DNA from: Candidatus Hydrogenedentota bacterium
GTDB lineage: Bacteria; Hydrogenedentota; Hydrogenedentia; Hydrogenedentales; SLHB01
DNA: 13,360 bases
Direction: 5' to 3'
NCBI GenBank assembly: GCA_034408725.1
Contig: JAWXCN010000042.1
Coordinates: 1 to 13,360 of the forward strand
Both the position numbers and the translations under genes were made by a program. Below the pieces are notes generated by a model. It made no database searches. It was not told the DNA's origin and saw nothing but the letters and a program-made list of their open reading frames with translations. Below are positions 1-12,068 of the stretch, piece after piece. Every line of letters begins with the position of its first letter. The stretch's first letter is position 1.

Positions 1-626
1 AACTTGGCCTGGACCGGTCCGCGCCGGCCAATCAGGTGAATCTCCCGGACCTTGCTTTCGGACAGCGCATCCAGCGCGTACGCCGCAATGTCCGTCGCGC
101 GCAATTCGTCCGCAGTCTTCGCGAGAATGCGACTGACGTCCATTGCGACGTTTCCCTGGCCGATCACAACCGCGACTTCCTGGGATAAATCGAACACGCG
201 ATCGCGATAATCGGGATGTCCGTTATACCAGCCTACAAATTCGGTCGCGGTGTGGCTGCCGGGTAAATCTTCGCCCGGTATGCCAAGCCGATTATCGGTT
301 TCCGCGCCACACGCCAGCACGATGGCGTCGTAGAAACGTTGCAACTCGACAATTGAAAGGTCGCGCCCAATGGTGACGTTTCCCAGAAATGCGAACCGTT
401 CGTGTGCGGCGATCTTGTCGTACACCTTCGTGACGCTTTTGATCTTCGGATGATCGGGCGCGACGCCACCGCGTACGAGGCCAAAAGGCGTTGGCAACCG
501 GTCGAACATGTCAACCTGCGCCACGAGGCCGGCCTTTAGCAGCGCCTCCGCGGCGTAGAAACCGCTCGGCCCGCTTCCCACAATCGCCACGCGCAACGGA
601 CGCGTCGCCGTGCCGATGCTGCTCAT
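1..626 (-). CDS. fprA: Ferredoxin--NADP+ reductase, FprA/adrenodoxin-reductase type (5' part; runs off the window edge)
   Basis: Not in the ORF track. Hand translation from ATG at 626 gives [31 protein letters not shown]...[23 protein letters not shown]...[10 protein letters not shown]...[18 protein letters not shown]...[10 protein letters not shown]. This has the FAD-binding GSGPSG, GLVRxGVAPDH, NADP-binding GQGNVAMD and GRRGP motifs of the family. GGAGG RBS at 630-634. Confidence 0.93.
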
Positions 627-699
627 GCGCCTCCCACATTTCGGTGCCCGCCACGCGAAACCCCGAACTTTATTATCCCAGACTCCGGCGGGAACCCAA

Positions 700-728
700 A
701 CGATACGGAGCAGCGTGTGTCAAGTCAA
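700..728 (-). promoter_or_regulatory. Putative sigma70-type promoter of the fprA-like gene
   Basis: Minus strand reads TTGACT (728-723), a 17-nt spacer, then TATCGT (705-700), about 70 nt upstream of the ATG. Confidence 0.45.
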
Positions 729-732
729 GGCA

Positions 733-758
733 TTGCACCCGCTCCAAGTGATGTGCAA
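733..758. promoter_or_regulatory. Inverted repeat TTGCAC-N14-GTGCAA upstream of the TA pair (possible autoregulatory operator)
   Basis: TTGCAC at 733-738 and GTGCAA at 753-758, ending 10 nt before the ATG at 769. Operator function is inferred. Confidence 0.3.
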
Positions 759-768
759 AGATTATTCT

Positions 769-1098
769 ATGGTACCCATTGAACAGATTCGCTCTTTTAT
801 ATCGACTCTCAGCGAAGCTGAAAAAACTGATCTGCTCCGGGTAGTTACGCAGGAACTGGTTAACGGCTTTCCTGGCGTCGAATCCACGCCGGGAATTTGC
901 GGGGGTGATGCCTGTATCGTACGCACGCGAATTCCTGTTTGGGCGCTGGAACAATGGCGAAGACTTGGTAAGGAAGAAGCGGAAATCCTTCAGATGTATC
1001 CAACGCTTCGCCCGGAAGACCTGCTTCATGCCTGGGCATATGCGGATGCCTACCACGATGAGATAGACGGGCAAATTCGCCGGAACGAGGACGCTTGA
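769..1098 (+). CDS. DUF433-family antitoxin
   Basis: Contains GVESTPGICGGDACIVRTRIPVWALEQWRRLG...EILQMYPTL...AWAYA, the DUF433 signature. Start placed at ATG 769 (MVPIEQIR) because the ORF-track start at 610 overlaps the fprA start and promoter. Confidence 0.88.
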   Translation: MVPIEQIRSFISTLSEAEKTDLLRVVTQELVNGFPGVESTPGICGGDACIVRTRIPVWALEQWRRLGKEEAEILQMYPTLRPEDLLHAWAYADAYHDEIDGQIRRNEDA

Positions 1099-1470
1099 TT
1101 GGCGCGTTTATTCGTCGATGAGAATTTTCCCGCCCCGACAACAATCCTACTTCGCAATTTTGGGCATGATGTCTTAACAATCCAAGATTGGGGATTTGCG
1201 GGGGTCGGACGATCTGATGAAACCGTTTTGGCCAAAGCCACCGCTGATCGGAGAGCGGTTCTGACGTTGAATCGGTGGCATTTTGTTCGTCTGCACCAAA
1301 TATCGAGCGATCATGCCGGAATTATTGTATGCTCGCAGGACGCCGATACTTCTGGGATGGCAGGGCGGATTGACGATGCGATCCGGTCCGTTTTGGAATT
1401 GAAAGGTCAACTTATTCGAGTCAACCGGCCTCCCCGGGGCTACATAGAAAGGCAACGAAATCAGGCATGA
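1099..1470 (+). CDS. DUF5615-family PIN-like toxin (VapC45-like), partner of DUF433
   Basis: MARLFVDENFP...GHDVLTI...SDETVLAKATADRRAVLTLNR..F...HAGII matches the DUF5615 pattern. The TTG start directly abuts the DUF433 stop (TGA-TTG), the usual order for this type II TA pair. Confidence 0.88.
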   Translation: MARLFVDENFPAPTTILLRNFGHDVLTIQDWGFAGVGRSDETVLAKATADRRAVLTLNRWHFVRLHQISSDHAGIIVCSQDADTSGMAGRIDDAIRSVLELKGQLIRVNRPPRGYIERQRNQA

Positions 1471-2430: not shown

Positions 2431-3042
2431 GTGCGTCTCGCTGCAATGATGCGCCGCGCCGTGCGGCACCCCGACGAAATTCTGCCCGCGGTCGTATGCC
2501 TGTTCACACGGTCACAGGTAAAAAGGATTGTGCGCGGTGGCGAAATTTTTCACGTCTATCGCGGAGAGATTTATCCGGATATCATCACGCACGGTAATGC
2601 GTCCGCGCATATTCTTGATACAGCCACACGCTATTGCGCCGGCGCGGGCATCGATATCGGCGCGAATCAGTGGCCTTTTCCCGGCGCAATCCCGATAGAC
2701 GATGCCATCGGCGAGAACGCGTACGCGCTGGTCCGCATTGCGGAAAGCAGCCTGGACTACGTCTTTAGCTCGCATTGTCTCGAACACCTTGCGCGCTGGC
2801 AGGACGCCCTCCGCCTGTGGATTGGCAAACTGAAACCCGGCGGTATACTGTTTATTTATCTGCCGCATGAATCCTGCGCATTGTGGCGACCCGGCGCGCC
2901 TTGGGTCGGCGGCACGCATAAATGGTCGCCAACGTGGCAGGTACTGATTCCATTTCTCAAAGGCTGCGGAATGGAAATTCTCGAGTACAACGCCGAGCAT
3001 GACGACTATTGGAGCTTTCACATCGTTGCCCGCCGCACGTAA
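2431..3042 (+). CDS. Class I SAM-dependent methyltransferase (Methyltransf_11-like)
   Basis: Motifs GIDIGA, SLDYVFSSHCLEHL and LKPGGILFIYLP. GTG start 1 nt after the cupin stop. Confidence 0.8.
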   Translation: MRLAAMMRRAVRHPDEILPAVVCLFTRSQVKRIVRGGEIFHVYRGEIYPDIITHGNASAHILDTATRYCAGAGIDIGANQWPFPGAIPIDDAIGENAYALVRIAESSLDYVFSSHCLEHLARWQDALRLWIGKLKPGGILFIYLPHESCALWRPGAPWVGGTHKWSPTWQVLIPFLKGCGMEILEYNAEHDDYWSFHIVARRT

Positions 3043-4024
3043 AAAGTCCTCGCGCCCGTCGCGAAAGCCGGCGTTGCTCGTTTCCGTCGTCGTGCCCGCG
3101 TACAACGAGGAACCGAACCTGCGATTCCTCTACGAACATCTCGATGCAGTATTCGCGACACTTGACGAATCGCTCGAACTCATCATCGTCGATGACGGCA
3201 GCACGGACAAGACGCGCGCGCTACTTGAGAGATTGCACGCTGAAGATTCGCGCGTCAAAGGCATTTTCCTTTCCCGCAACTTCGGCCAAGCGCCGGCATT
3301 GAGCGCTGGCATTCAGGCCGCCAGCGGCGACGCCGTTGTCGTGATGGACGCGGACGGACAGGACCCGCCGGAAATCATCCCCGCGCTGATCGCGAAGTGG
3401 AAAGAAGGCTATGAGGTGATTGGCGGACGACGCAGCAACCGTGAGGCGGACCCATGGTCGAAGCGGATGAGCGCTTATATTTGGTACCGCGTGATGCGGC
3501 TGCTTGTTGGTTGGGAAATGCCGATGGACACCGGCGAATTCCGCTTGATCGATCGGAAAGTCGCGGATGTATTTTGCGCATGTCCGCAATTGCACCGGCT
3601 GGTGCGCACGTTGACGTCCTGGCCGGGTTTTCGCCAAACCACAGTTGACTACGTTCACGCCAAACGCCATGCCGGCGTGACAAAGTATACGTTCCGCGCG
3701 AGCTTGCGCCTCGCGATTATGAGCATCACAGGGTTTTCCCTCGTTCCCCTGCGCGTTGCCTTTGGTTTGGGCGCCCTGGCCATGCTGTTCGCATTGATCG
3801 CGTGCGCCGCCATCATCGCGCCGATATTCGCCGGTAAGCCGGTGAATCTTCTTGCACTAGCCGTTGCCGGCCTCTGGCTCTTTGGCGGCGCGCAATGCAT
3901 TCTCCTCGGCATCGTCGGCGAGTACGTTGGCCGCACCTATATCGAAGCGCAACAGCGCCCGCTTTATGTGATTCGAGACAGAATTGGCTTTGAAGATGAT
4001 AGGTATGGAGTACGGGAACGCTAG
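2999..4024 (+). CDS. GT2 polyprenyl-phosphate glycosyltransferase (GtrB/YkoT-like)
   Basis: VSVVVPAYNEE, IIVDDGSTD, LSRNFGQ, MDADGQDPPE, DTGEFRLIDR, two C-terminal TM helices and GIVGEYVGRTY..RPLY. The true start may be TTG 3026, which has GGAG upstream. Confidence 0.92.
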   Translation: MTTIGAFTSLPAARKKSSRPSRKPALLVSVVVPAYNEEPNLRFLYEHLDAVFATLDESLELIIVDDGSTDKTRALLERLHAEDSRVKGIFLSRNFGQAPALSAGIQAASGDAVVVMDADGQDPPEIIPALIAKWKEGYEVIGGRRSNREADPWSKRMSAYIWYRVMRLLVGWEMPMDTGEFRLIDRKVADVFCACPQLHRLVRTLTSWPGFRQTTVDYVHAKRHAGVTKYTFRASLRLAIMSITGFSLVPLRVAFGLGALAMLFALIACAAIIAPIFAGKPVNLLALAVAGLWLFGGAQCILLGIVGEYVGRTYIEAQQRPLYVIRDRIGFEDDRYGVRER

Positions 4025-4147: not shown

Positions 4148-5041
4148 CTACTTGACGCCACATCGGCCGCACATCTTCAAAAAGTATTCGCTGTCCGCGT
4201 CACTACGAATGCCGAGTCGCGTTAATGCGAAATCGTAACGCACAGGGTCGTCTGGCGCGATAATGCGAAACGCCGCGGTGATCTCGCGCGACATGCGCAG
4301 GTCCGCCGCACAACGCGCAGTGATGCCCAACGCCTTCGCGATACGGTGGACGTGTGTGTCCACAGGCATGAGCAACATGCGCCGCGGCACAAAATCCCAG
4401 CCACCGGGGTCGACTTCGTCTTCCCGCACCATCCAGCGCAGATACAAATGCAGCCGCTTGCACGCGCTTCCAAGCGCGGGTTCCGGCACCAGATAGTTCT
4501 TGCGCGCACCACCATTGATCAAAGTAACGAAACGTCCCAGCGCACCGGAAATATCCGCATCATTATTCGTGCGCGCCCGACACCGGGGAGGGCGCGCGTC
4601 CTCGCGCGCTGTCTCGTCCGTATCACCACTCATGCAGGCGCAAAACCCTCCGCCAACGCTCCCGTATTCTTCGCGAATCCGTTTTGCGCCCAGCAACATC
4701 GCGCTGAGTTCCGCGCCGGTAGCGTATCGGTGCCGGAACCCGGCAAACGACGCGCGCACTTGCCGCGGAGTCGCCGTGTCGATCCACATTGCCGGTCGTG
4801 GCAACGCATCCAGGACGCTTCCAATACTACGCACGATCTGTTGCACATTGCCGAATGCGAGACTGGATGCGATCAATCCCACCAACTCCCGGTCTTCGGG
4901 GTCAGGATAGGCCGACAGAAATTGCAGCGGATCTGGCGCGATGTATTTTTGACGCGTCCATCGCGCATATAACTGTTCGAGATGCGGATGCAAAGCACGC
5001 ATCCGCGCGATAAGGAAATCTGATGAAGAATCTTCGTTCAT
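4148..5041 (-). CDS. TIGR02757 / DUF2400 family protein
   Basis: DPLQF...DRELVGLIASSLAFGNVQQI, SACKRLHLYLRWMVR, PVDTHVHR and DPVRYDFAL are the conserved blocks of this family. Confidence 0.9.
   Translation of the reverse strand: MNEDSSSDFLIARMRALHPHLEQLYARWTRQKYIAPDPLQFLSAYPDPEDRELVGLIASSLAFGNVQQIVRSIGSVLDALPRPAMWIDTATPRQVRASFAGFRHRYATGAELSAMLLGAKRIREEYGSVGGGFCACMSGDTDETAREDARPPRCRARTNNDADISGALGRFVTLINGGARKNYLVPEPALGSACKRLHLYLRWMVREDEVDPGGWDFVPRRMLLMPVDTHVHRIAKALGITARCAADLRMSREITAAFRIIAPDDPVRYDFALTRLGIRSDADSEYFLKMCGRCGVK
4587..4609 (+). repeat. GGAG-tagged REP-like hairpin inside the TIGR02757 CDS
   Basis: GGAG-G-GCGCGCG-TCCT-CGCGCGC: a 7-bp perfect stem with a 4-nt loop. It reads AREDARPP in the protein. 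Confidence 0.5.
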
Positions 5042-5088
5042 GGCGCAACATCGTAGCGTGCAGACACATCAATTCCCATTTTAGGACG

Positions 5089-5458
5089 CCTTGGAGTGCG
5101 GTAGCGGAGTCCGCTTCGGACGGAGCTACCGCTTTGGGTTGCTGTTATTCGAGGATTTGACCATGCACGGCAAGGGTAGATTGTCCGTGATGAACAGCCA
5201 AAGCGGCGCCTTAGGGGCCGCCGCAGTCCAAATAGGCTTCTTGATAGAGCGTGGTTTTGGGTGGAGGGCCACTTTGGACAGAGGGCTATTCGGACTGCGG
5301 TGGCGGAGCGGGTAGCGCAGACACTGCTTTGGCTGTTTAGAGGCGACGGCTTGGTGCGCGCACGTGTTGAGGGGCAGACCATCTGTGATAAACAGCCAAA
5401 GCGGCGCCTTAGGGGCCGTAGCAGTCCTGATAGGCTTCTTGTTTGAACGTGGTTTTGG
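5089..5458. repeat. REP/REPIN-like cluster: four palindromic units in two inverted pairs, including a 68-bp direct repeat at 198-bp offset
   Basis: Units at 5089-5135 (fwd), 5200-5231 (rev), 5291-5330 (fwd) and 5398-5427 (rev), consensus TGGA(G/C)TGCGG...CCGCTTT. 5193-5260 matches 5391-5458 at 61/68 by manual alignment. Confidence 0.8.
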
Positions 5459-5468
5459 TGTCCAATGA

Positions 5469-7832
5469 TCAGTAATCGATTGGAAAGTGCCGGTTAATGC
5501 GTTCGCCTTCGACGTGAAGCGTGCCGCCACGCAGGCTGAACCGGATGGCTCCAACGCGATCTGTGCGGAGTACGGGGATTTTATGCGCTTCATAGCGGTC
5601 GACAATTTCAGCGTCCATCACTTGCCGGCCGCGCGGGCCCGTCGAGATGACTGCGTAATCCGGTTGCACGGCGTTAATGAATGCGATGGTGCTCGAGGTG
5701 TCTGCGCCATGATGGGGGACTTTCAACACAGTGGACCGCAGGGTATCCGGATCAAGCTGTCTTTCCGCCGCTTTCTCAATATCGCCGGTGAACAGAAATG
5801 CGTGCGGACCGAACAGGACGCGCAGCACCAGGCTGCGATCATTTGGTTCAGTTTGTTCCGGCAGATCGCGCGGCGGGTGCAACACGTCAATCGCTGTCTC
5901 CCCGATGGTGATGGTCTCGCCGCGTTTTACGCGCAGTACCGGGACGCCGCGCGCGGAACATTGCGCAAGCAATTGCGTTTCGAGCGGACGCTCATCGTCG
6001 TCTTCGCTGAGAATCAGTGTGCCAATGTCGATGGCATCTACGATGTATAGCAACCCGCCCATGTGGTCGCGGTCTGAATGTGATGCGATAACCACGTCCA
6101 GGCGCGTGATGCCGCGCGCCCACAGAAATGGCGCGACGACGCGCTCGCCGTAATCGTATTTGTCCGATGCGTTGCCGCCGTCTATCAACATTGTTTGGCC
6201 TGATGTAGTTCGCACGAACGCGGCATCGCCGTGCCCAACGTCCATGAACACGACTTCGGGTTCGTGAAACCGGAAGTTCCAGGCGATCATCGACAAAACG
6301 AACGCAGCGCATGCGGCGCGGATGACGGTTTTACGCCGTTCTTTTCTCACAAAGTAGAGCAGGCTCAAGAATCCAGCGGCAAGCCAGTACAGCGTAAATG
6401 CGGCGCCGGTTGGTGTCACCAGCGCCAGCGTCAAGAAATCCAGCGACGATGCAAGCGCGGCCACGCCACGAATCAACGTGACCGGGAGCACGACCGCATA
6501 GCCGGCGATGCGCGCAAGCGGCATCCAGACGAATGACAGTAGCGAAGTTGCAAAGCACAGCCAGAGGACAACCGCGAGAAGCGGTATCACCACCAAATTC
6601 GCAAGCATGCCCGTGAACGCGAACACGTGAAAACTCGCCGCAACGATGGGCGCGGGCAGAATTTGCACGGCGAGCGAGGTCGCAATGCTGGGACGCAGCC
6701 AGCGATGGATGCGCGCTAGTCCTGTCATGAACAGTGGCGCAAAGACAAGGATTGACGCAATGCATGTGAACGACAACTGGAAGCCTACGTCGAATATGAC
6801 GTGGGGATTCCAGAGGATAAAGGCGATGCCGGCAATGCTGAGCGCGGTCGGCGCGTCTGGCTCGCGGTCGAGCAGATCGGCGGATAAATACAGGCAGACC
6901 ATCGCCGCGGCGCGCATTGCGGGGATACTCGCGCCAGCGACCAGCGCAAAAGTGATTACGCCGAGCATACAGGCTATCGAGCGTCTGCGGCGCGGCACGT
7001 GCAGAACGCGCAATGCAAAATTCAGGGTAAGGAAAATCAGCGCGGCGTGGACACCGGAGACTGAAAGAATGTGCGCTGTGCCTGACCCGACGTAGGCGCG
7101 ATATTCATCCCGGTCGAGCGCGCTCTGTTGGCCCAACCACACGGCATAGATGAACGGCAGGATGGATGGAGGCATTGCCTCTGTAAGACGCCGCGCCTGC
7201 GCATGACGTAGACGCGCGGTATAGTACGTGGCCCTGTACCACGGCGCGGGTCCTTGTTGAACGACCGCGCCGGGACCAGACGTTTCGAGGACAGACTGGA
7301 TGCCGCGGTTGCGCAGAAAGTCTTCATAACCGCGGATGCCGGGGTTCACTTCGCTCAGCGCGAGGCGAGCATCGCCGTCAACGGTTACACGCTCGCCCGG
7401 AAAAACTGCGCGCGGCGCCTGGTACCAATTCACGTATACCAGCCCGTCCACCGGCGACAACTTTTCACCGTCGCGATACGAATCGACATCCAGCACGAAA
7501 CCGTGAAAATCGCTTCCGGGTAGCATCAAGCGTGTTGAGCGGACAGTGCCGCTGAACTCGAAATTTGCCTCTTGATGCGCCTGGAGCAGAGTGCTTACAC
7601 CGTCGCCGTGGAATTCGCCGGTCCGCAATCCCCACCACGCGCCGCCCGCGCCGATGAAACACAGAACGAGCGCGACGGGTCTAATCCTTGGAACACGAGA
7701 GGCGAAAATGGCGATGGTGCAGCCAAGTGCTGCAATGCCAAGGGAGAATAGAGGATTTGGCAGGAAGCCCCAGGCGGCGGCAACAGTTCCGCAAAGCAAC
7801 GCGATTGCGGCCCACGCCAGAGGGCGATTCAT
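5469..7832 (-). CDS. comEC: DNA-internalisation competence protein ComEC/Rec2
   Basis: N-terminal TM and DUF4131/OB-like region, Competence domain (GTAHILSVSGVH, SIPAMRA, GFQLSF), and C-terminal metallo-beta-lactamase fold (DVGHGDA, SHSDRDHMGG, FTGDIE, KVPHHG). Start uncertain: ATG 7832 (MNRPL), ATG 7844 or GTG 7856. Confidence 0.95.
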   Translation of the reverse strand: MNRPLAWAAIALLCGTVAAAWGFLPNPLFSLGIAALGCTIAIFASRVPRIRPVALVLCFIGAGGAWWGLRTGEFHGDGVSTLLQAHQEANFEFSGTVRSTRLMLPGSDFHGFVLDVDSYRDGEKLSPVDGLVYVNWYQAPRAVFPGERVTVDGDARLALSEVNPGIRGYEDFLRNRGIQSVLETSGPGAVVQQGPAPWYRATYYTARLRHAQARRLTEAMPPSILPFIYAVWLGQQSALDRDEYRAYVGSGTAHILSVSGVHAALIFLTLNFALRVLHVPRRRRSIACMLGVITFALVAGASIPAMRAAAMVCLYLSADLLDREPDAPTALSIAGIAFILWNPHVIFDVGFQLSFTCIASILVFAPLFMTGLARIHRWLRPSIATSLAVQILPAPIVAASFHVFAFTGMLANLVVIPLLAVVLWLCFATSLLSFVWMPLARIAGYAVVLPVTLIRGVAALASSLDFLTLALVTPTGAAFTLYWLAAGFLSLLYFVRKERRKTVIRAACAAFVLSMIAWNFRFHEPEVVFMDVGHGDAAFVRTTSGQTMLIDGGNASDKYDYGERVVAPFLWARGITRLDVVIASHSDRDHMGGLLYIVDAIDIGTLILSEDDDERPLETQLLAQCSARGVPVLRVKRGETITIGETAIDVLHPPRDLPEQTEPNDRSLVLRVLFGPHAFLFTGDIEKAAERQLDPDTLRSTVLKVPHHGADTSSTIAFINAVQPDYAVISTGPRGRQVMDAEIVDRYEAHKIPVLRTDRVGAIRFSLRGGTLHVEGERINRHFPIDY

Positions 7833-7844
7833 GTACAACGCCAT

Positions 7845-7886
7845 AAAATGCAACACGCCCGTTCGCGATTGGCGAACGGGCGCGTT
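7845..7886 (-). terminator. Hairpin / probable intrinsic terminator of the 44-aa peptide gene
   Basis: Minus strand AACG-CGCCCGTTCGC-CAATC-GCGAACGGGCG-TGTT-GCATTTT. An 11-bp perfect core extends to 15 bp with one G.U pair; the U tract is imperfect. It starts 32 nt after the peptide stop. Confidence 0.65.
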
Positions 7887-7918
7887 AGAATCGGATCAGA
7901 AATTTCTCAAACCGAGGC

Positions 7919-8053
7919 TTAGATAACACCGCCAAGGTTCAGGAGCCAGATCAACAGCGTGTAGCCAAAGGTACTCGCAAACGAGGTAACTTGGCCAGCG
8001 ATGTCAAGACCGACAATCCCGAAGATCAGATTCAGAATGCTCGACAGATCCAT
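7919..8053 (-). CDS. Small hydrophobic protein, 44 aa (MDLSSILNLIFGIVGLDIAGQVTSFASTFGYTLLIWLLNLGGVI), unknown function
   Basis: Below the ORF-track size cutoff. AAGGAGGA RBS (8068-8061) lies 7 nt before ATG 8053, and the stop is TAA at 7921-7919. It has its own promoter upstream and a hairpin downstream. Confidence 0.8.
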   Translation of the reverse strand: MDLSSILNLIFGIVGLDIAGQVTSFASTFGYTLLIWLLNLGGVI

Positions 8054-8105
8054 GTGCGTATCCTCCTTCTCGACGTGCGCTTAATCCACGTGGTAACGCG
8101 CCGCC

Positions 8106-8135
8106 ATGCTACAGAAACCCCAAGGGATTTGTCAA
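8106..8135 (-). promoter_or_regulatory. Sigma70-type promoter of the 44-aa peptide gene
   Basis: Minus strand TTGACA (8135-8130), 18-nt spacer, TAGCAT (8111-8106). Confidence 0.65.
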
Positions 8136-8275
8136 GGCAGAGTTCACCGCCCAGCGCAGGGGTGGTATGCCGTCGCCAAATTCCCTGCTAGATATACGGG
8201 CCAATCGAGTTTTCGTTACTATTCGCCTGCTCGTGTATCATGCCTGCCTGCGAATCAAACAGCGAGGGAGCGGGC

Positions 8276-9754
8276 ATGGGCAAGCGGTATGTCCTGGCCT
8301 TGGACCAGGGGACGACGAGTTCGCGATCGATACTAGTCGATGAAGAAGGCCAAATCCGCTCGTCCGCCGGGCGCGAGTTTCCCCAGCATTATCCCAAACC
8401 CGGCTGGGTCGAACATGACCCCGAAGCAATTTGGCGATCGCAAATTGAAACGGCCCGCGCGGCCATCGTCAAAGCCAAGATAACAGCGGATGAAATCGCC
8501 GCAATCGGCATCGCCAACCAGCGCGAAACCACGATCGTCTGGGACCGCGCGACTGGCCAACCCATTCACAACGCAATTGTGTGGCAGTGCCGCCGCACGG
8601 CGGAGTTCTGCGATAGCCTGAAGGCCCAAGGGCTATCCGAAGAATTTCGCGAAAAAACCGGCCTGGTTATTGACGCTTATTTTTCCGGCACCAAAGCGCG
8701 CTGGCTGTTGGATCATGTTGACGGCGCACGCGCCCGGGCCACCCGTGGCGAGCTATGTTTTGGCACCATCGATAGCTGGTTGTTGTACCGGCTGACCGGA
8801 TGTCATGCAACGGACTATTCCAATGCTTCGCGAACCCTGATGTTTGATATTGGGTCATTGCGCTGGGACGATACGTTGCTGTCTTATCTCGATGTTCCGC
8901 GGGAAATACTTCCAGAAGTTTTGCCGACCAGCGGGCACTTTGGGACGACGTCCCTGTTTGGCCCTGACATTCCCGTCATGGCGCTTTGCGGTGATCAACA
9001 AAGCGCCCTTTTCGGCCAGGCGGCGTTCACCGCGGGAGAGTGCAAAAATACCTACGGCACGGGGTGTTTCGTACTTATGAATACCGGTGACCGGCTGGTC
9101 CGCTCCGACAACGGGCTCCTGACCACAATTGCCTGGGGGTTGGACGACAAGGTCACTTACGCGTTGGAGGGAAGTGTGTTCATCGGCGGTGCGGTCGTGC
9201 AATGGTTGCGGGACGAGTTGGGGTGGATTACCTCTGCCGGGGAAAGCGAATCTATCGCCTCGCAAGTAACTGATAGCGGAGGGGTTTACGTGGTTCCAGC
9301 CTTTGTCGGGCTAGGCGCTCCATATTGGGACATGCATGCACGAGGAACAATTACCGGGTTGACACGCGGATCCGGAAGAGCGCACATTGTGCGCGCTGCC
9401 TTGGAGTCCATTTCATTTCAATCGTCGGATGTAATTCACGCAATGGAACAGGACCTCCGTGAGACCATTCCTTCGCTAAAAGTGGATGGCGGCGCCTCGA
9501 CCAACGGCCTGTTGATGCAACACCAGGCGGATGTCCTTGGCATACCGGTAGTTCGCGGAAAAATTACCGAAACGACGGCGTTGGGAGCAGCGTTTCTGGC
9601 GGGGCTCGCAGTGGGTGTTTGGAAGAGCCAGGAAGAGCTTCGCGGCATCTGTAAACTGGATCGGGAGTTCGCACCGGCATGGAGCGAATCGGCCCGTGAA
9701 TCGGCCTTAAGTGCTTGGCGCAATGCTATACAACGCACGCTGTCCGGGACGTAA
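8276..9754 (+). CDS. glpK: Glycerol kinase
   Basis: ALDQGTTSSR, GWVEHDP, IANQRETT, AIVWQCRRT, DAYFSGTK, GDQQSALFGQ, KNTYGTGCF, PAFVGLGAPYWD, VDGGA and ETTALGAA. Start placed at ATG 8276 (MGKRYVLAL), after GAGGGAG. Confidence 0.97.
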   Translation: MGKRYVLALDQGTTSSRSILVDEEGQIRSSAGREFPQHYPKPGWVEHDPEAIWRSQIETARAAIVKAKITADEIAAIGIANQRETTIVWDRATGQPIHNAIVWQCRRTAEFCDSLKAQGLSEEFREKTGLVIDAYFSGTKARWLLDHVDGARARATRGELCFGTIDSWLLYRLTGCHATDYSNASRTLMFDIGSLRWDDTLLSYLDVPREILPEVLPTSGHFGTTSLFGPDIPVMALCGDQQSALFGQAAFTAGECKNTYGTGCFVLMNTGDRLVRSDNGLLTTIAWGLDDKVTYALEGSVFIGGAVVQWLRDELGWITSAGESESIASQVTDSGGVYVVPAFVGLGAPYWDMHARGTITGLTRGSGRAHIVRAALESISFQSSDVIHAMEQDLRETIPSLKVDGGASTNGLLMQHQADVLGIPVVRGKITETTALGAAFLAGLAVGVWKSQEELRGICKLDREFAPAWSESARESALSAWRNAIQRTLSGT

Positions 9755-9819: not shown

Positions 9820-9972
9820 GGTCAGCGCCACATGTGGCGTTTCTCCTTCCGCGGAGGCCACGGTACGAAAGTTCCGTGGTCTCTAAAACGACTCGCGGTC
9901 TGGAGTTATCCTTTAGGCTGCGGAGTTTCGATAGATTCGGACCGAAACCGCGCTCGGTTTCGGTCCCTTTTT
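9820..9972 (+). ncRNA. Putative ~150-nt small regulatory RNA (no family recognised)
   Basis: Bounded by the promoter and a terminator, with no credible ORF. Three hairpins (9825-9840; 9853-9884 with a GAAA loop; 9890-9927) and a pyrimidine-rich anti-SD-like linker TTTCTCCTTCC (9840-9850). Confidence 0.6.
9939..9972 (+). terminator. Intrinsic terminator
   Basis: GGACCGAAACCG-CGCT-CGGTTTCGGTCC is a 12-bp perfect stem followed by CTTTTT. The U tract is present only in the + orientation. Confidence 0.85.
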
Positions 9973-10579
9973 ATGCCTGTTTCACGGCTTTCGCCCACAG
10001 GTTCATACCCAATTCAAATGAGCCAATCGTGATTTCTTCTGGCTGAAACCCTCCCGCTAAAAACAGCCCCCGCAGCGATTCCCGGCTATAGGTCTGGGCG
10101 TGCTCATCGATTTCCTCGGGACTGACCAACCGCAATCGCGCCATTGTCCGCAGTATGCCGTCGGTCCACGCAGCGGGAGTGGTAACGACGAATATGCCTT
10201 CACTGTAGAGCACGCGGCGCACCTCACGAACAAGCCGCACCGCGACGTCGAATGGCACATGTTCTATCACGGCCAACATCGTCACCGCTTTGAAACTGCT
10301 GTCCGGAAATGGCAGAGGATCCGTCGAAATGATGTCATGCGCGATCAATTGAATCCCTCTGGTCCGAAGTTCCGCCTCGACGTGGCGCTCAAGGCCGACC
10401 CGTTTTTCCACGTTGACCTTCGACAGAAACAGTGGAAACGACCCGCAACCAATATCCAATACGCTGTCGATAATGGCCGTTGGATAAAGCAGCGATCTTG
10501 CCTTGTCGCTTCGTGCTCGCGCGAGGAGGCCTTCCAAAATGCCATGCCCGCGGGTGGCGCGGGGTACAGGGCTATTCAT
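9971..10579 (-). CDS. Class I SAM-dependent methyltransferase
   Basis: VLDIGCG, LPFPDSSFKAVTMLAVIEHV and EGIFVVTTP. Start placed at ATG 10579, overlapping the upstream gene's stop by 8 nt (ATGAATAG). Confidence 0.87.
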   Translation of the reverse strand: MNSPVPRATRGHGILEGLLARARSDKARSLLYPTAIIDSVLDIGCGSFPLFLSKVNVEKRVGLERHVEAELRTRGIQLIAHDIISTDPLPFPDSSFKAVTMLAVIEHVPFDVAVRLVREVRRVLYSEGIFVVTTPAAWTDGILRTMARLRLVSPEEIDEHAQTYSRESLRGLFLAGGFQPEEITIGSFELGMNLWAKAVKQA

Positions 10580-12068
10580 TTCCAGCACTCTGGAGGTTAT
10601 AGAGGTACACGCTGGATTCGGGAAAAAGCATTGAGTCGATGCGTTGCCCGTGTGAATCAAGGTGGGTGAGGAAAAACTTGGGTTCTTCACCGACAAGTTG
10701 GGCAGGCGTGGTGGCGATCAGAATCCACGCGCGCGGGTTGCCGTCTATCGCTTCGAGTTCCCGGATGTAATGCGACCAGTCGGCGCGCGAGGATACACCC
10801 TCGATCTCGGGGAAATCGCGGCCGTACGCGATCTCGTAATATTGAAACGGCGCAACTGCCCAGGGATAGACGTAGAGGCCATCGGCATCGCGCCAATGTT
10901 GCGACAAATACTGGAACGCGGGCCGAACGCCTTCCGGCGGTGGTTTTACGATGCCGCGAACGACAGCGGTTACGGGTTGCGCAAAAATAATTATCAACAG
11001 CATCACCCACACAAGCGTGCTCCGCGTTTGCGCGCGAAATGCGTCCCAGCCCGCGCCGGCAACTATCAAGACCAGCGGCGCGAGGAAAATAAGAAACCGT
11101 CCCATGAACGGATAGCGCTGAAGGCCGCTGACCAGCAGCGTGACCGCGATGGGCGCGAGCACGCACGCGAGCAACATCCGGTTGCGATTCCATAACGTAT
11201 GAACGCCGAGGACAAATAGGAATGCGCCAACGCCGGCCGCGGACATACCCACGGGTTCGGCGAATAGTTCGTAGTACGTGCGAATAAACCACGCGCCATC
11301 GGCAGCGGACGTAGGCGGGAGCGGCATGAAACGATCAAGCCACCAGGTTCGGACTTCCGCGTTCTCCGTGTTATGACGAAGCATGAGCTGGTAATTGATA
11401 GCGAAGCTTGCGAGCCACGCGACGCCGGCCGTGGCCAACGCCGCCGTTTGTTTTCCATCGCGCGCGCGCAACGCCGCCACAAAAAGTACGGAGCCAATAC
11501 CGATAAGCACGAAGATCGCGGGAAACGCGCTCCAGACCGCGAGCGCGCCGGCAAGTATGGCCAGGATCGTGCGGGCGACCGTCATGCGCGTTCCGTTGCG
11601 AGGAATCAATAGCACATAGAGCACGACTGCGACGAGCAGGTCCGTGGCATAGGCCTTGACTTCGCTCGCGTAGCGAATGATCGGCGTGGAGAGCGCGAAC
11701 ACGGCAAACGAAAACAGCGTCGCGTTGCGCGAGAGAAACCGCGACAGGAAAAGATACACAACGATGCAGGACGCAATCGATGCTAGAACCGGCACAAGCC
11801 GAAGCGCGTATTCGCTCGTGCCCATTGATTCGACGACAAACCGCTCGGCCCATAGGAACGCCAGCGGAGCGCCCTGTCCGTAATCCAACCGTTCGGTGAG
11901 TCCACCGTAACTCCTGCGAAGAATGCTCAATGCGAGATGCGCTTCGTCGAGCCAGATGGCTTTGTTGCGCGCGTATTCAATAATGCGAACGACAATCGCA
12001 ATGGCGATCAAGGTAATTTCCGCTTTTCCCCAACGGGCGCTTCCCGCATTATTCTCGGCGGCTGTCAT
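10572..12068 (-). CDS. GT-C fold membrane glycosyltransferase (PMT/ArnT, GT39-like)
   Basis: IWLDE motif after TM1, APLAF...SEYALRL, YASEVKAY, many hydrophobic segments and a soluble C-terminal domain. GGAG RBS upstream. Confidence 0.82.
   Translation of the reverse strand: MTAAENNAGSARWGKAEITLIAIAIVVRIIEYARNKAIWLDEAHLALSILRRSYGGLTERLDYGQGAPLAFLWAERFVVESMGTSEYALRLVPVLASIASCIVVYLFLSRFLSRNATLFSFAVFALSTPIIRYASEVKAYATDLLVAVVLYVLLIPRNGTRMTVARTILAILAGALAVWSAFPAIFVLIGIGSVLFVAALRARDGKQTAALATAGVAWLASFAINYQLMLRHNTENAEVRTWWLDRFMPLPPTSAADGAWFIRTYYELFAEPVGMSAAGVGAFLFVLGVHTLWNRNRMLLACVLAPIAVTLLVSGLQRYPFMGRFLIFLAPLVLIVAGAGWDAFRAQTRSTLVWVMLLIIIFAQPVTAVVRGIVKPPPEGVRPAFQYLSQHWRDADGLYVYPWAVAPFQYYEIAYGRDFPEIEGVSSRADWSHYIRELEAIDGNPRAWILIATTPAQLVGEEPKFFLTHLDSHGQRIDSMLFPESSVYLYNLQSAGNE

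Follow-up and report, generated by a model that had tools for sequence, protein, structure and literature searches.

A conserved gene for a hydrophobic, acidic 44-residue mini-protein directly upstream of comEC in an uncultured Hydrogenedentota bacterium

The gene and its surroundings

The window (the whole stretch of 13,360 nt that was analysed, from a Candidatus Hydrogenedentota contig) carries on its minus strand a small gene located between comEC and a divergent glpK, its upstream neighbour. A Shine-Dalgarno sequence, an open reading frame of 44 codons and a hairpin are all present on this strand, as the earlier note on this DNA had claimed. The ORF (7919..8053), which encodes a hydrophobic, acidic peptide predicted to fold as helix, hinge and helix, runs from the ATG at 8053 to the TAA at 7921..7919, and its translation is exactly the peptide that the note had quoted. 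The start is fixed at this ATG because an in-frame TAA lies at 8083..8081 and no start codon occurs between the two. The ORF list shows 16 frames with 20 aa or more that overlap the region 7780..8260. The exact 44-aa protein is already in public predicted-protein sets, where its relatives are labelled ‘hypothetical protein’, and no Rfam family and no tRNA was matched at the locus. Most features of the gene could be compared with those of a related locus, L001, a MAG contig that is the sole locus besides the window with DNA; it was the one confirmed case among 39 pattern matches in a genome scan with a six-sequence alignment, and its positions 175..306 hold the coding sequence of the family member.

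Transcription would be directed by a TTGACA -35 hexamer (8130..8135, minus strand; identical in L001) and a TAGCAT -10 hexamer (8106..8111, minus strand) found 18 nt past it in the sequence scan. The -35 box is perfect, as had been noted, but the promoter overall is good rather than perfect, since the -10 box matches four of six consensus positions and the spacer is 18 nt; the two hexamers together match 10 of 12. This is the sole promoter-like site on either strand of 7500..8500, where shuffled sequences lead one to expect 0.2, and the block from -35 to -10 is identical to L001 at 28 of 30 nt. We infer a transcription start at about 8099. The 5' leader (8054..8105, minus strand) shares 43 of 52 nt with L001. 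Reading by eye, one finds in it the palindrome CACGTG (in the window, CCACGTGG) and, 15 nt downstream, a further element, CACGTC; both are kept in L001, and this pair could be an operator. Upstream of the -35 box is a conserved non-coding stretch common to the mini-protein gene and the divergent glpK (8136..8203; L001 13..80), in which 55 of 68 nt are identical; this identity of 81% compares with 73% for the ORF and is far above that of synonymous sites (dS 1.06). An inverted repeat, GCAGGG (8188..8183) and CCCTGC (8161..8156), was read by eye within it and is kept in L001, and the stretch may be a regulator site shared with glpK.

The Shine-Dalgarno sequence AAGGAGGA (8061..8068, minus strand) is located 7 nt before the ATG and is identical in L001. 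It occurs as a single copy in the 13.4-kb window, with 0.18 expected and at least one copy in 36 of 200 shuffles, while the shorter GGAGG occurs 18 times against an expectation of 18.4. By their likeness to consensus, these signals suggest high expression of the mini-protein.

Downstream of the ORF, terminator scanning and folding revealed an intrinsic-terminator-like element (7841..7887, minus strand), made up of a hairpin (7887..7851) and a T-rich tail (7850..7841). The hairpin begins 31 nt past the stop codon and forms 16 pairs, followed by CATTTTATGG; its folding energy is -29.7 kcal/mol (z = -5.0). The terminator scan by itself was not above chance (one found, 1.3 expected); the hairpin, however, is kept in L001, with the same energy of -29.7 kcal/mol and a wholly different loop. 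Three differences between the window and L001 in the 3' arm of the stem all preserve pairing via G-U, as read by eye. The predicted fold of the mRNA is more stable than that of shuffles (z = -2.5), and in the minimum-energy structure the 5' leader pairs at long range with the 3' end of the ORF; the excess stability is largely due to the terminator hairpin.

The gene that follows on the same strand is comEC (5469..7832), identified through its DUF4131, Competence and metallo-beta-lactamase domains in Pfam and NCBIfam and through a match to TIGR00361 at 238 bits. It is likely that comEC starts at the ATG at 7832, 9 nt past the terminator tail, rather than at the GTG at 7856 that opens the longest ORF, because this GTG lies inside the terminator hairpin and the alignment with L001 favours the ATG. 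The consensus scan of 7500..8500 found no separate promoter-like site for comEC, and a recognisable Shine-Dalgarno sequence before comEC is absent from both the window and L001.

Domain searches of the 13.4 kb found no exporter, immunity, modification or phage genes. Right after comEC, an ORF of 114 aa (5038..5382, minus strand) overlaps the start of a DUF2400 gene by 4 nt; neither Pfam nor NCBIfam gave a match for it, and L001 lacks it after comEC. At 610..1470 on the plus strand, a DUF433 protein (610..1098; its true start may be later) is followed by a DUF5615/PIN-like protein (1099..1470), a pair that looks like a type II toxin-antitoxin module. Genes for glycan modification are plentiful in the window. 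The longest ORFs of a methyltransferase (9971..10696, minus strand) and of a GT-C/PMT_2-like membrane glycosyltransferase (10572..12068, minus strand) overlap by 125 nt, so that one of the two starts is probably miscalled; a further GT2 gene lies at 2999..4024 and another methyltransferase at 2431..3042.

A family of small proteins under purifying selection

An exhaustive phmmer search of 1.84 billion protein representatives with the 44-aa peptide gave five matches at E <= 0.001, four of them peptides of 44-49 aa, and a word-indexed protein search gave five clusters among five candidates. A profile search extended the family: of 272 candidates, 21 clusters reached E <= 1, of which 20 are 44-49 aa long and one is 62 aa. 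Homologues retain their length at protein identities of 41-89%. The known members all come from metagenome and MAG sequences, and the single named cluster (P0005) is from Candidatus Hydrogenedentes. This is also the 62-aa sequence, deposited as ‘hypothetical protein [Candidatus Hydrogenedentes bacterium]’, and it equals another member, P0004, with 18 additional N-terminal residues. The longer call is probably over-extended through a miscalled start, because the 18-residue extension begins at an ATG within the -10 box (TAGCATGG) and is interrupted by a stop codon in the window.

The family alignment (A5) holds 20 sequences, leaving out P0005, whose core is identical to P0004, and the repeat protein P0008. 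Six residues are invariant in it (L3, F25, F29, Y31, W36 and G42), and a further eight are nearly so (I6, G15, D17, Q21, L34, L38, L40 and I44), while position 39 is Asn in 16 of the 20 sequences. P0008, a protein of 1547 aa, matches residues 11-32 of the peptide in eight stretches (E = 1.1e-6), and the match runs through a recurring D-I-G-G-Q-V-T-A-Y-A-S-G-Y-like motif. It was not counted as a family member, its match being confined to residues 11-32, and the resemblance was put down to chance or composition. Fused or longer forms were found in none of 8000 scored candidates at E <= 1, which is weak evidence by the tool's own rating, and the phage and plasmid collections held no match to the gene.

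Comparison with L001 shows how the gene has been constrained. The coding sequences differ at 36 of 132 nt, with 13, 6 and 17 differences at first, second and third codon positions; dS is 1.06 (19 synonymous differences over 33.5 sites) and dN 0.196 (17 nonsynonymous differences over 98.5 sites), giving a dN/dS of 0.19. Identity is 99 of 135 nt (73%) over the ORF, 20 of 31 between the stop codon and the hairpin, 28 of 37 in the hairpin itself, and 8 of 18 in the stretch that runs from the tail up to the start of comEC. The promoter, the Shine-Dalgarno sequence, the start codon and the hairpin are kept despite the fact that ComEC is just 59% identical between the two loci. In both loci, which come from two related genomes, the mini-protein gene immediately precedes comEC and shares its strand, and beyond comEC the gene order differs: L001 continues with a gene for a VTT-domain (DedA-like) protein and a pyridine-nucleotide oxidoreductase, and the window with the 114-aa ORF and the DUF2400 gene. 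In these two loci, the only two that could be compared, the pairing of the peptide gene with comEC outlasts the divergence of the surrounding genes.

From the 21 clusters of conserved length, the dN/dS of 0.19 and the retention of promoter, Shine-Dalgarno sequence and hairpin in L001, we conclude that the 44-codon ORF is a genuine gene whose frame is under purifying selection. The earlier note had described a complete stand-alone expression unit for a real peptide, and on this point it is borne out. It had proposed looking for homologues, for a dN/dS below 1 and for the frame in syntenic relatives, all of which were found; paralogues, which it had also suggested seeking, were not, the window and L001 each having one copy of the gene.

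Composition and predicted fold of the peptide

The peptide contains two Asp residues and no Lys, Arg or His, confirming the composition given earlier; over its 44 residues it has a charge of -2 and a GRAVY of 1.37. Every one of the 20 aligned members carries a net negative charge (-2 to -5), with GRAVY values of 1.05-1.45; 13 of them have neither Lys nor Arg, seven have one such residue, and His does not occur. A third acidic residue, D27, is found in 17 of the 20 members, where the window has S27. Small membrane proteins usually obey the positive-inside rule, from which the near-absence of Lys and Arg in this family departs. Extreme hydrophobicity, net acidity and almost no basic residues make up an unusual combination.

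AlphaFold2, run on the 20-sequence alignment, predicts two helices at residues 3-13 and 18-40 with a hinge at 14-17 (G-x-D), at a pLDDT of 85.7; helix 2 is 23 residues long, and D27 lies inside it. Residues 3-13 have a hydrophobic moment of 0.45, residues 18-40 one of 0.24, and the whole peptide one of 0.11. Given these values, the description of the peptide as amphipathic, made in the earlier note for the whole, fits the N-terminal helix alone. Conservation of helix 1 is one-sided, with L3, I6, I10 and I13 forming a hydrophobic face and the polar face varying (permutation p = 0.008), while helix 2 is conserved on all sides (permutation p = 0.64). Such all-round conservation is what one would expect if helix 2 were buried in protein contacts rather than having one lipid-facing side.

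The best 19-residue Kyte-Doolittle mean is 1.63 for this peptide and 1.31-1.76 across the family, reaching at least 1.6, the threshold reportedly set by Kyte and Doolittle in 1982, in 8 of the 20 members. The hydrophobic tail without interruption, residues 33-44, is short for crossing a membrane. That the peptide spans the membrane fully is plausible but not certain.

Searches for a known identity

Nothing significant was found for the peptide or the members in the curated libraries Pfam, NCBIfam, PADLOC and PHROGs. HMA_2 appeared over positions 116-153 of the model at E = 0.066 in two of the 20 members, but at 13.6 bits against a cut-off of 30 this is uninformative, as is the match of four of the 20 members at E <= 1 to phrog_27208, itself of unknown function (best 6.9e-4, for P0009). 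The best hit of a sequence profile search of the PDB had E = 0.99, and a Foldseek search with the AlphaFold2 model gave no PDB match at E <= 10 and three BFVD matches, all at E >= 5.9. A feature search of a protein atlas, in which scores under 0.9 count as leads at most, reached best scores of 0.82 and 0.80, in the range of chance. Its lead to TrbL_5 (PF19511), at 0.80 and 0.76, was rejected: a third of shuffled proteins reach this level, and hmmscan did not match TrbL_5 to the window peptide or four relatives (E <= 10) or to any of the 20 members (E <= 1). By these sequence and structure comparisons the family is an undescribed one, with no relative in any curated library searched. No paper contained a 10-residue stretch of the peptide, and the listings and opening lines of abstracts on Hydrogenedentes and on PSM homologues offered nothing relevant.

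Several motif-based identities were also considered and rejected. Prepilins carry a basic leader and, after a Gly at -1, a hydrophobic stretch that has Glu at +5. The spacing from G12 through IVGL to D17 mimics this motif of type IV or Flp pilins, but position 12 is Gly in just seven of the 20 members (and Lys in seven), the leader is acidic, position +5 is Asp, and no pilin family was matched; a surface or filament subunit, one of the roles put forward in the earlier note, thus has neither motif nor family behind it. Double-glycine leaders end in GG, GA or GS and are handled by a C39 peptidase-ABC exporter, whereas positions 14-15 of the family read VG, AG or SG, never G-G/A/S, and the window has no exporter. 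A RiPP precursor was set aside since modification enzymes are absent nearby. The peptide resembles the major coat proteins of filamentous phages in length (that of Pf3 likewise has 44 aa), in the acidity of its N-terminal part, in its hydrophobic helix and in the lack of a signal peptide. The mini-protein differs from them in lacking a basic C-terminus and in having no phage genes nearby, and no match to it was found in phage genomes, in PHROGs of known function or among viral predicted structures.

Possible functions

Our preference, tentative and somewhat short of even confidence, is for an abundant membrane-embedded mini-protein that acts through tight helix packing and whose terminator is read through at a level that feeds comEC. 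The independently transcribed gene would give rise to a very hydrophobic, acidic, alpha-helical mini-protein of 44 residues, made in large amounts and residing in or on the cytoplasmic membrane. Its amphipathic helix 1 would occupy the membrane interface, and helix 2 would be buried in its C-terminal part, with tight helix-helix packing either among copies of the peptide or against a larger membrane protein. The residues expected to mediate this packing are the invariant F25, F29, Y31, W36 and G42, together with the nearly invariant Q21, L34, L38 and L40. Most transcripts would end at the hairpin, and comEC mRNA would have no other visible source than the minority that read through; the peptide and ComEC would then be produced from one promoter at very different levels. 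Low-level supply of comEC mRNA by read-through is proposed because no other promoter-like site occurs in 7500..8500.

If one promoter serves both the peptide and ComEC, then ComEC is the one concrete candidate partner for the peptide. Among the roles listed in the earlier note, association with ComEC, still a candidate role, is the only one to have gained positive evidence, namely the shared position in both loci and the lack of a visible separate comEC promoter. More specifically, the peptide might serve the ComEC DNA-uptake channel as a small subunit or gatekeeper particular to this lineage, produced in excess from the shared promoter and with its fully conserved helix 2 packing on the ComEC transmembrane domain; this proposal we regard as decidedly unlikely on present evidence. 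Comparable proteins are KdpF, CydX, AcrZ and MgtS, each small, located in the membrane and bound to a larger membrane machine. Like them, the mini-protein is under 50 aa, lacks a signal peptide and has a single long hydrophobic helix, and its gene is codirectional with and adjoins that of a large polytopic membrane protein. It differs from them, however, in being acidic with almost no Lys or Arg, and has no sequence relationship to them. Known small-subunit genes such as those of KdpF and CydX are translationally coupled to the partner gene, without a strong hairpin between them, whereas a strong hairpin parts the mini-protein gene from that of its candidate partner, and the mini-protein gene has its own promoter and the best Shine-Dalgarno sequence of the window. 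The titles listed in a literature search on ComEC and small membrane proteins mentioned no such partner.

It is also conceivable, but unlikely, that the peptide is leaderless, leaves the cell in bulk and acts outside it as a PSM-like surfactant, a biofilm peptide or a leaderless bacteriocin. The earlier note had drawn a comparison with PSM-beta of Staphylococcus (PF05480), and there is a likeness: the peptide falls in the same length class of about 44 aa, is helical, net negative and leaderless, and comes from a unit that is apparently strongly expressed and closed by a terminator. Helix 1 is indeed amphipathic with a variable polar face, several members have a hydropathy under the usual membrane-span threshold, and a PSMbeta cluster ranked eighth in the atlas feature search, with a score of 0.76 that makes it a lead at most and that shuffled proteins also attain. 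The likeness nevertheless ends at length and charge. PF05480 gave no match at E <= 10 in any of five proteins (the window peptide and four relatives) or at E <= 1 in any of the 20 members. The mini-protein is far more uniformly hydrophobic than PSM-beta (GRAVY 1.37), and its moments of 0.11 overall and 0.24 in helix 2 are those of a mostly uniformly hydrophobic rather than an amphipathic peptide. The gene is single-copy, and neither the window nor L001 has an ABC exporter, an immunity gene or a tandem paralogue. The host belongs to an unrelated, uncultured phylum of Gram-negative type, and leaderless bacteriocins are typically cationic.

Improbable, by comparison, is a type I-like membrane toxin that depolarises the membrane of its producer, a role that had also been suggested earlier. 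The peptide shares with Hok, TisB, Fst and Ldr a short (under 60 aa), hydrophobic and helical form and a dedicated small transcription unit, and the mRNA fold (z = -2.5), in which the 5' leader pairs with the 3' end of the ORF, speaks for this reading, but the excess stability of that fold comes largely from the terminator hairpin. No toxin family was matched in Pfam, NCBIfam or PADLOC, no RNA family was matched, and the consensus scan of 7500..8500, which an unusual promoter could escape, found no antisense promoter-like site. The mini-protein lacks the basic residues of type I toxins, and its open consensus Shine-Dalgarno sequence and consensus -35 box run counter to the tight repression under which such toxins usually stand. 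The gene, moreover, is single-copy, occupies a fixed and syntenic chromosomal place, and is under purifying selection among relatives down to 41% identity.

The layout of a short ORF, a terminator and a promoterless comEC is that of an attenuator, and the ORF might accordingly be a cis-regulatory leader whose translation controls termination and comEC, the peptide itself having no role. This is very improbable, in view of a peptide sequence conserved in 20 members with six invariant residues and a dN/dS of 0.19. The stop codon is 31 nt before the hairpin, out of reach of a terminating ribosome; the stretch between the two is the least conserved part of the unit (20 of 31 nt); and the fold contains no alternative anti-terminator pairing.

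That the ORF arose by chance within a conserved non-coding or small-RNA region is scarcely credible. In its favour, flanking non-coding DNA shares 81-93% of its positions with L001, against 73% for the ORF, and ORFs of this size are common at the locus (the 16 mentioned above), but homologues of the same length exist at 41-89% protein identity, the differences peak at third codon positions with a dN/dS of 0.19, and no Rfam family was matched.

Significance

Proteins of fewer than 50 residues routinely escape annotation or are merely called ‘hypothetical’, and the gene described here, under strong purifying selection and with the best expression signals of its surroundings, offers a clean example from an uncultured phylum. 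It represents a new small-protein family that is well supported and of a known general kind, with a function that we infer. If a link between the mini-protein and ComEC is borne out, a DNA-uptake channel of still poorly understood mechanism would gain a component, and a role of the peptide as its subunit or gatekeeper would make it the first described small-protein partner of ComEC. Should the mini-protein instead be a bulk peptide of the membrane or cell surface, it would represent a new class of abundant envelope component.
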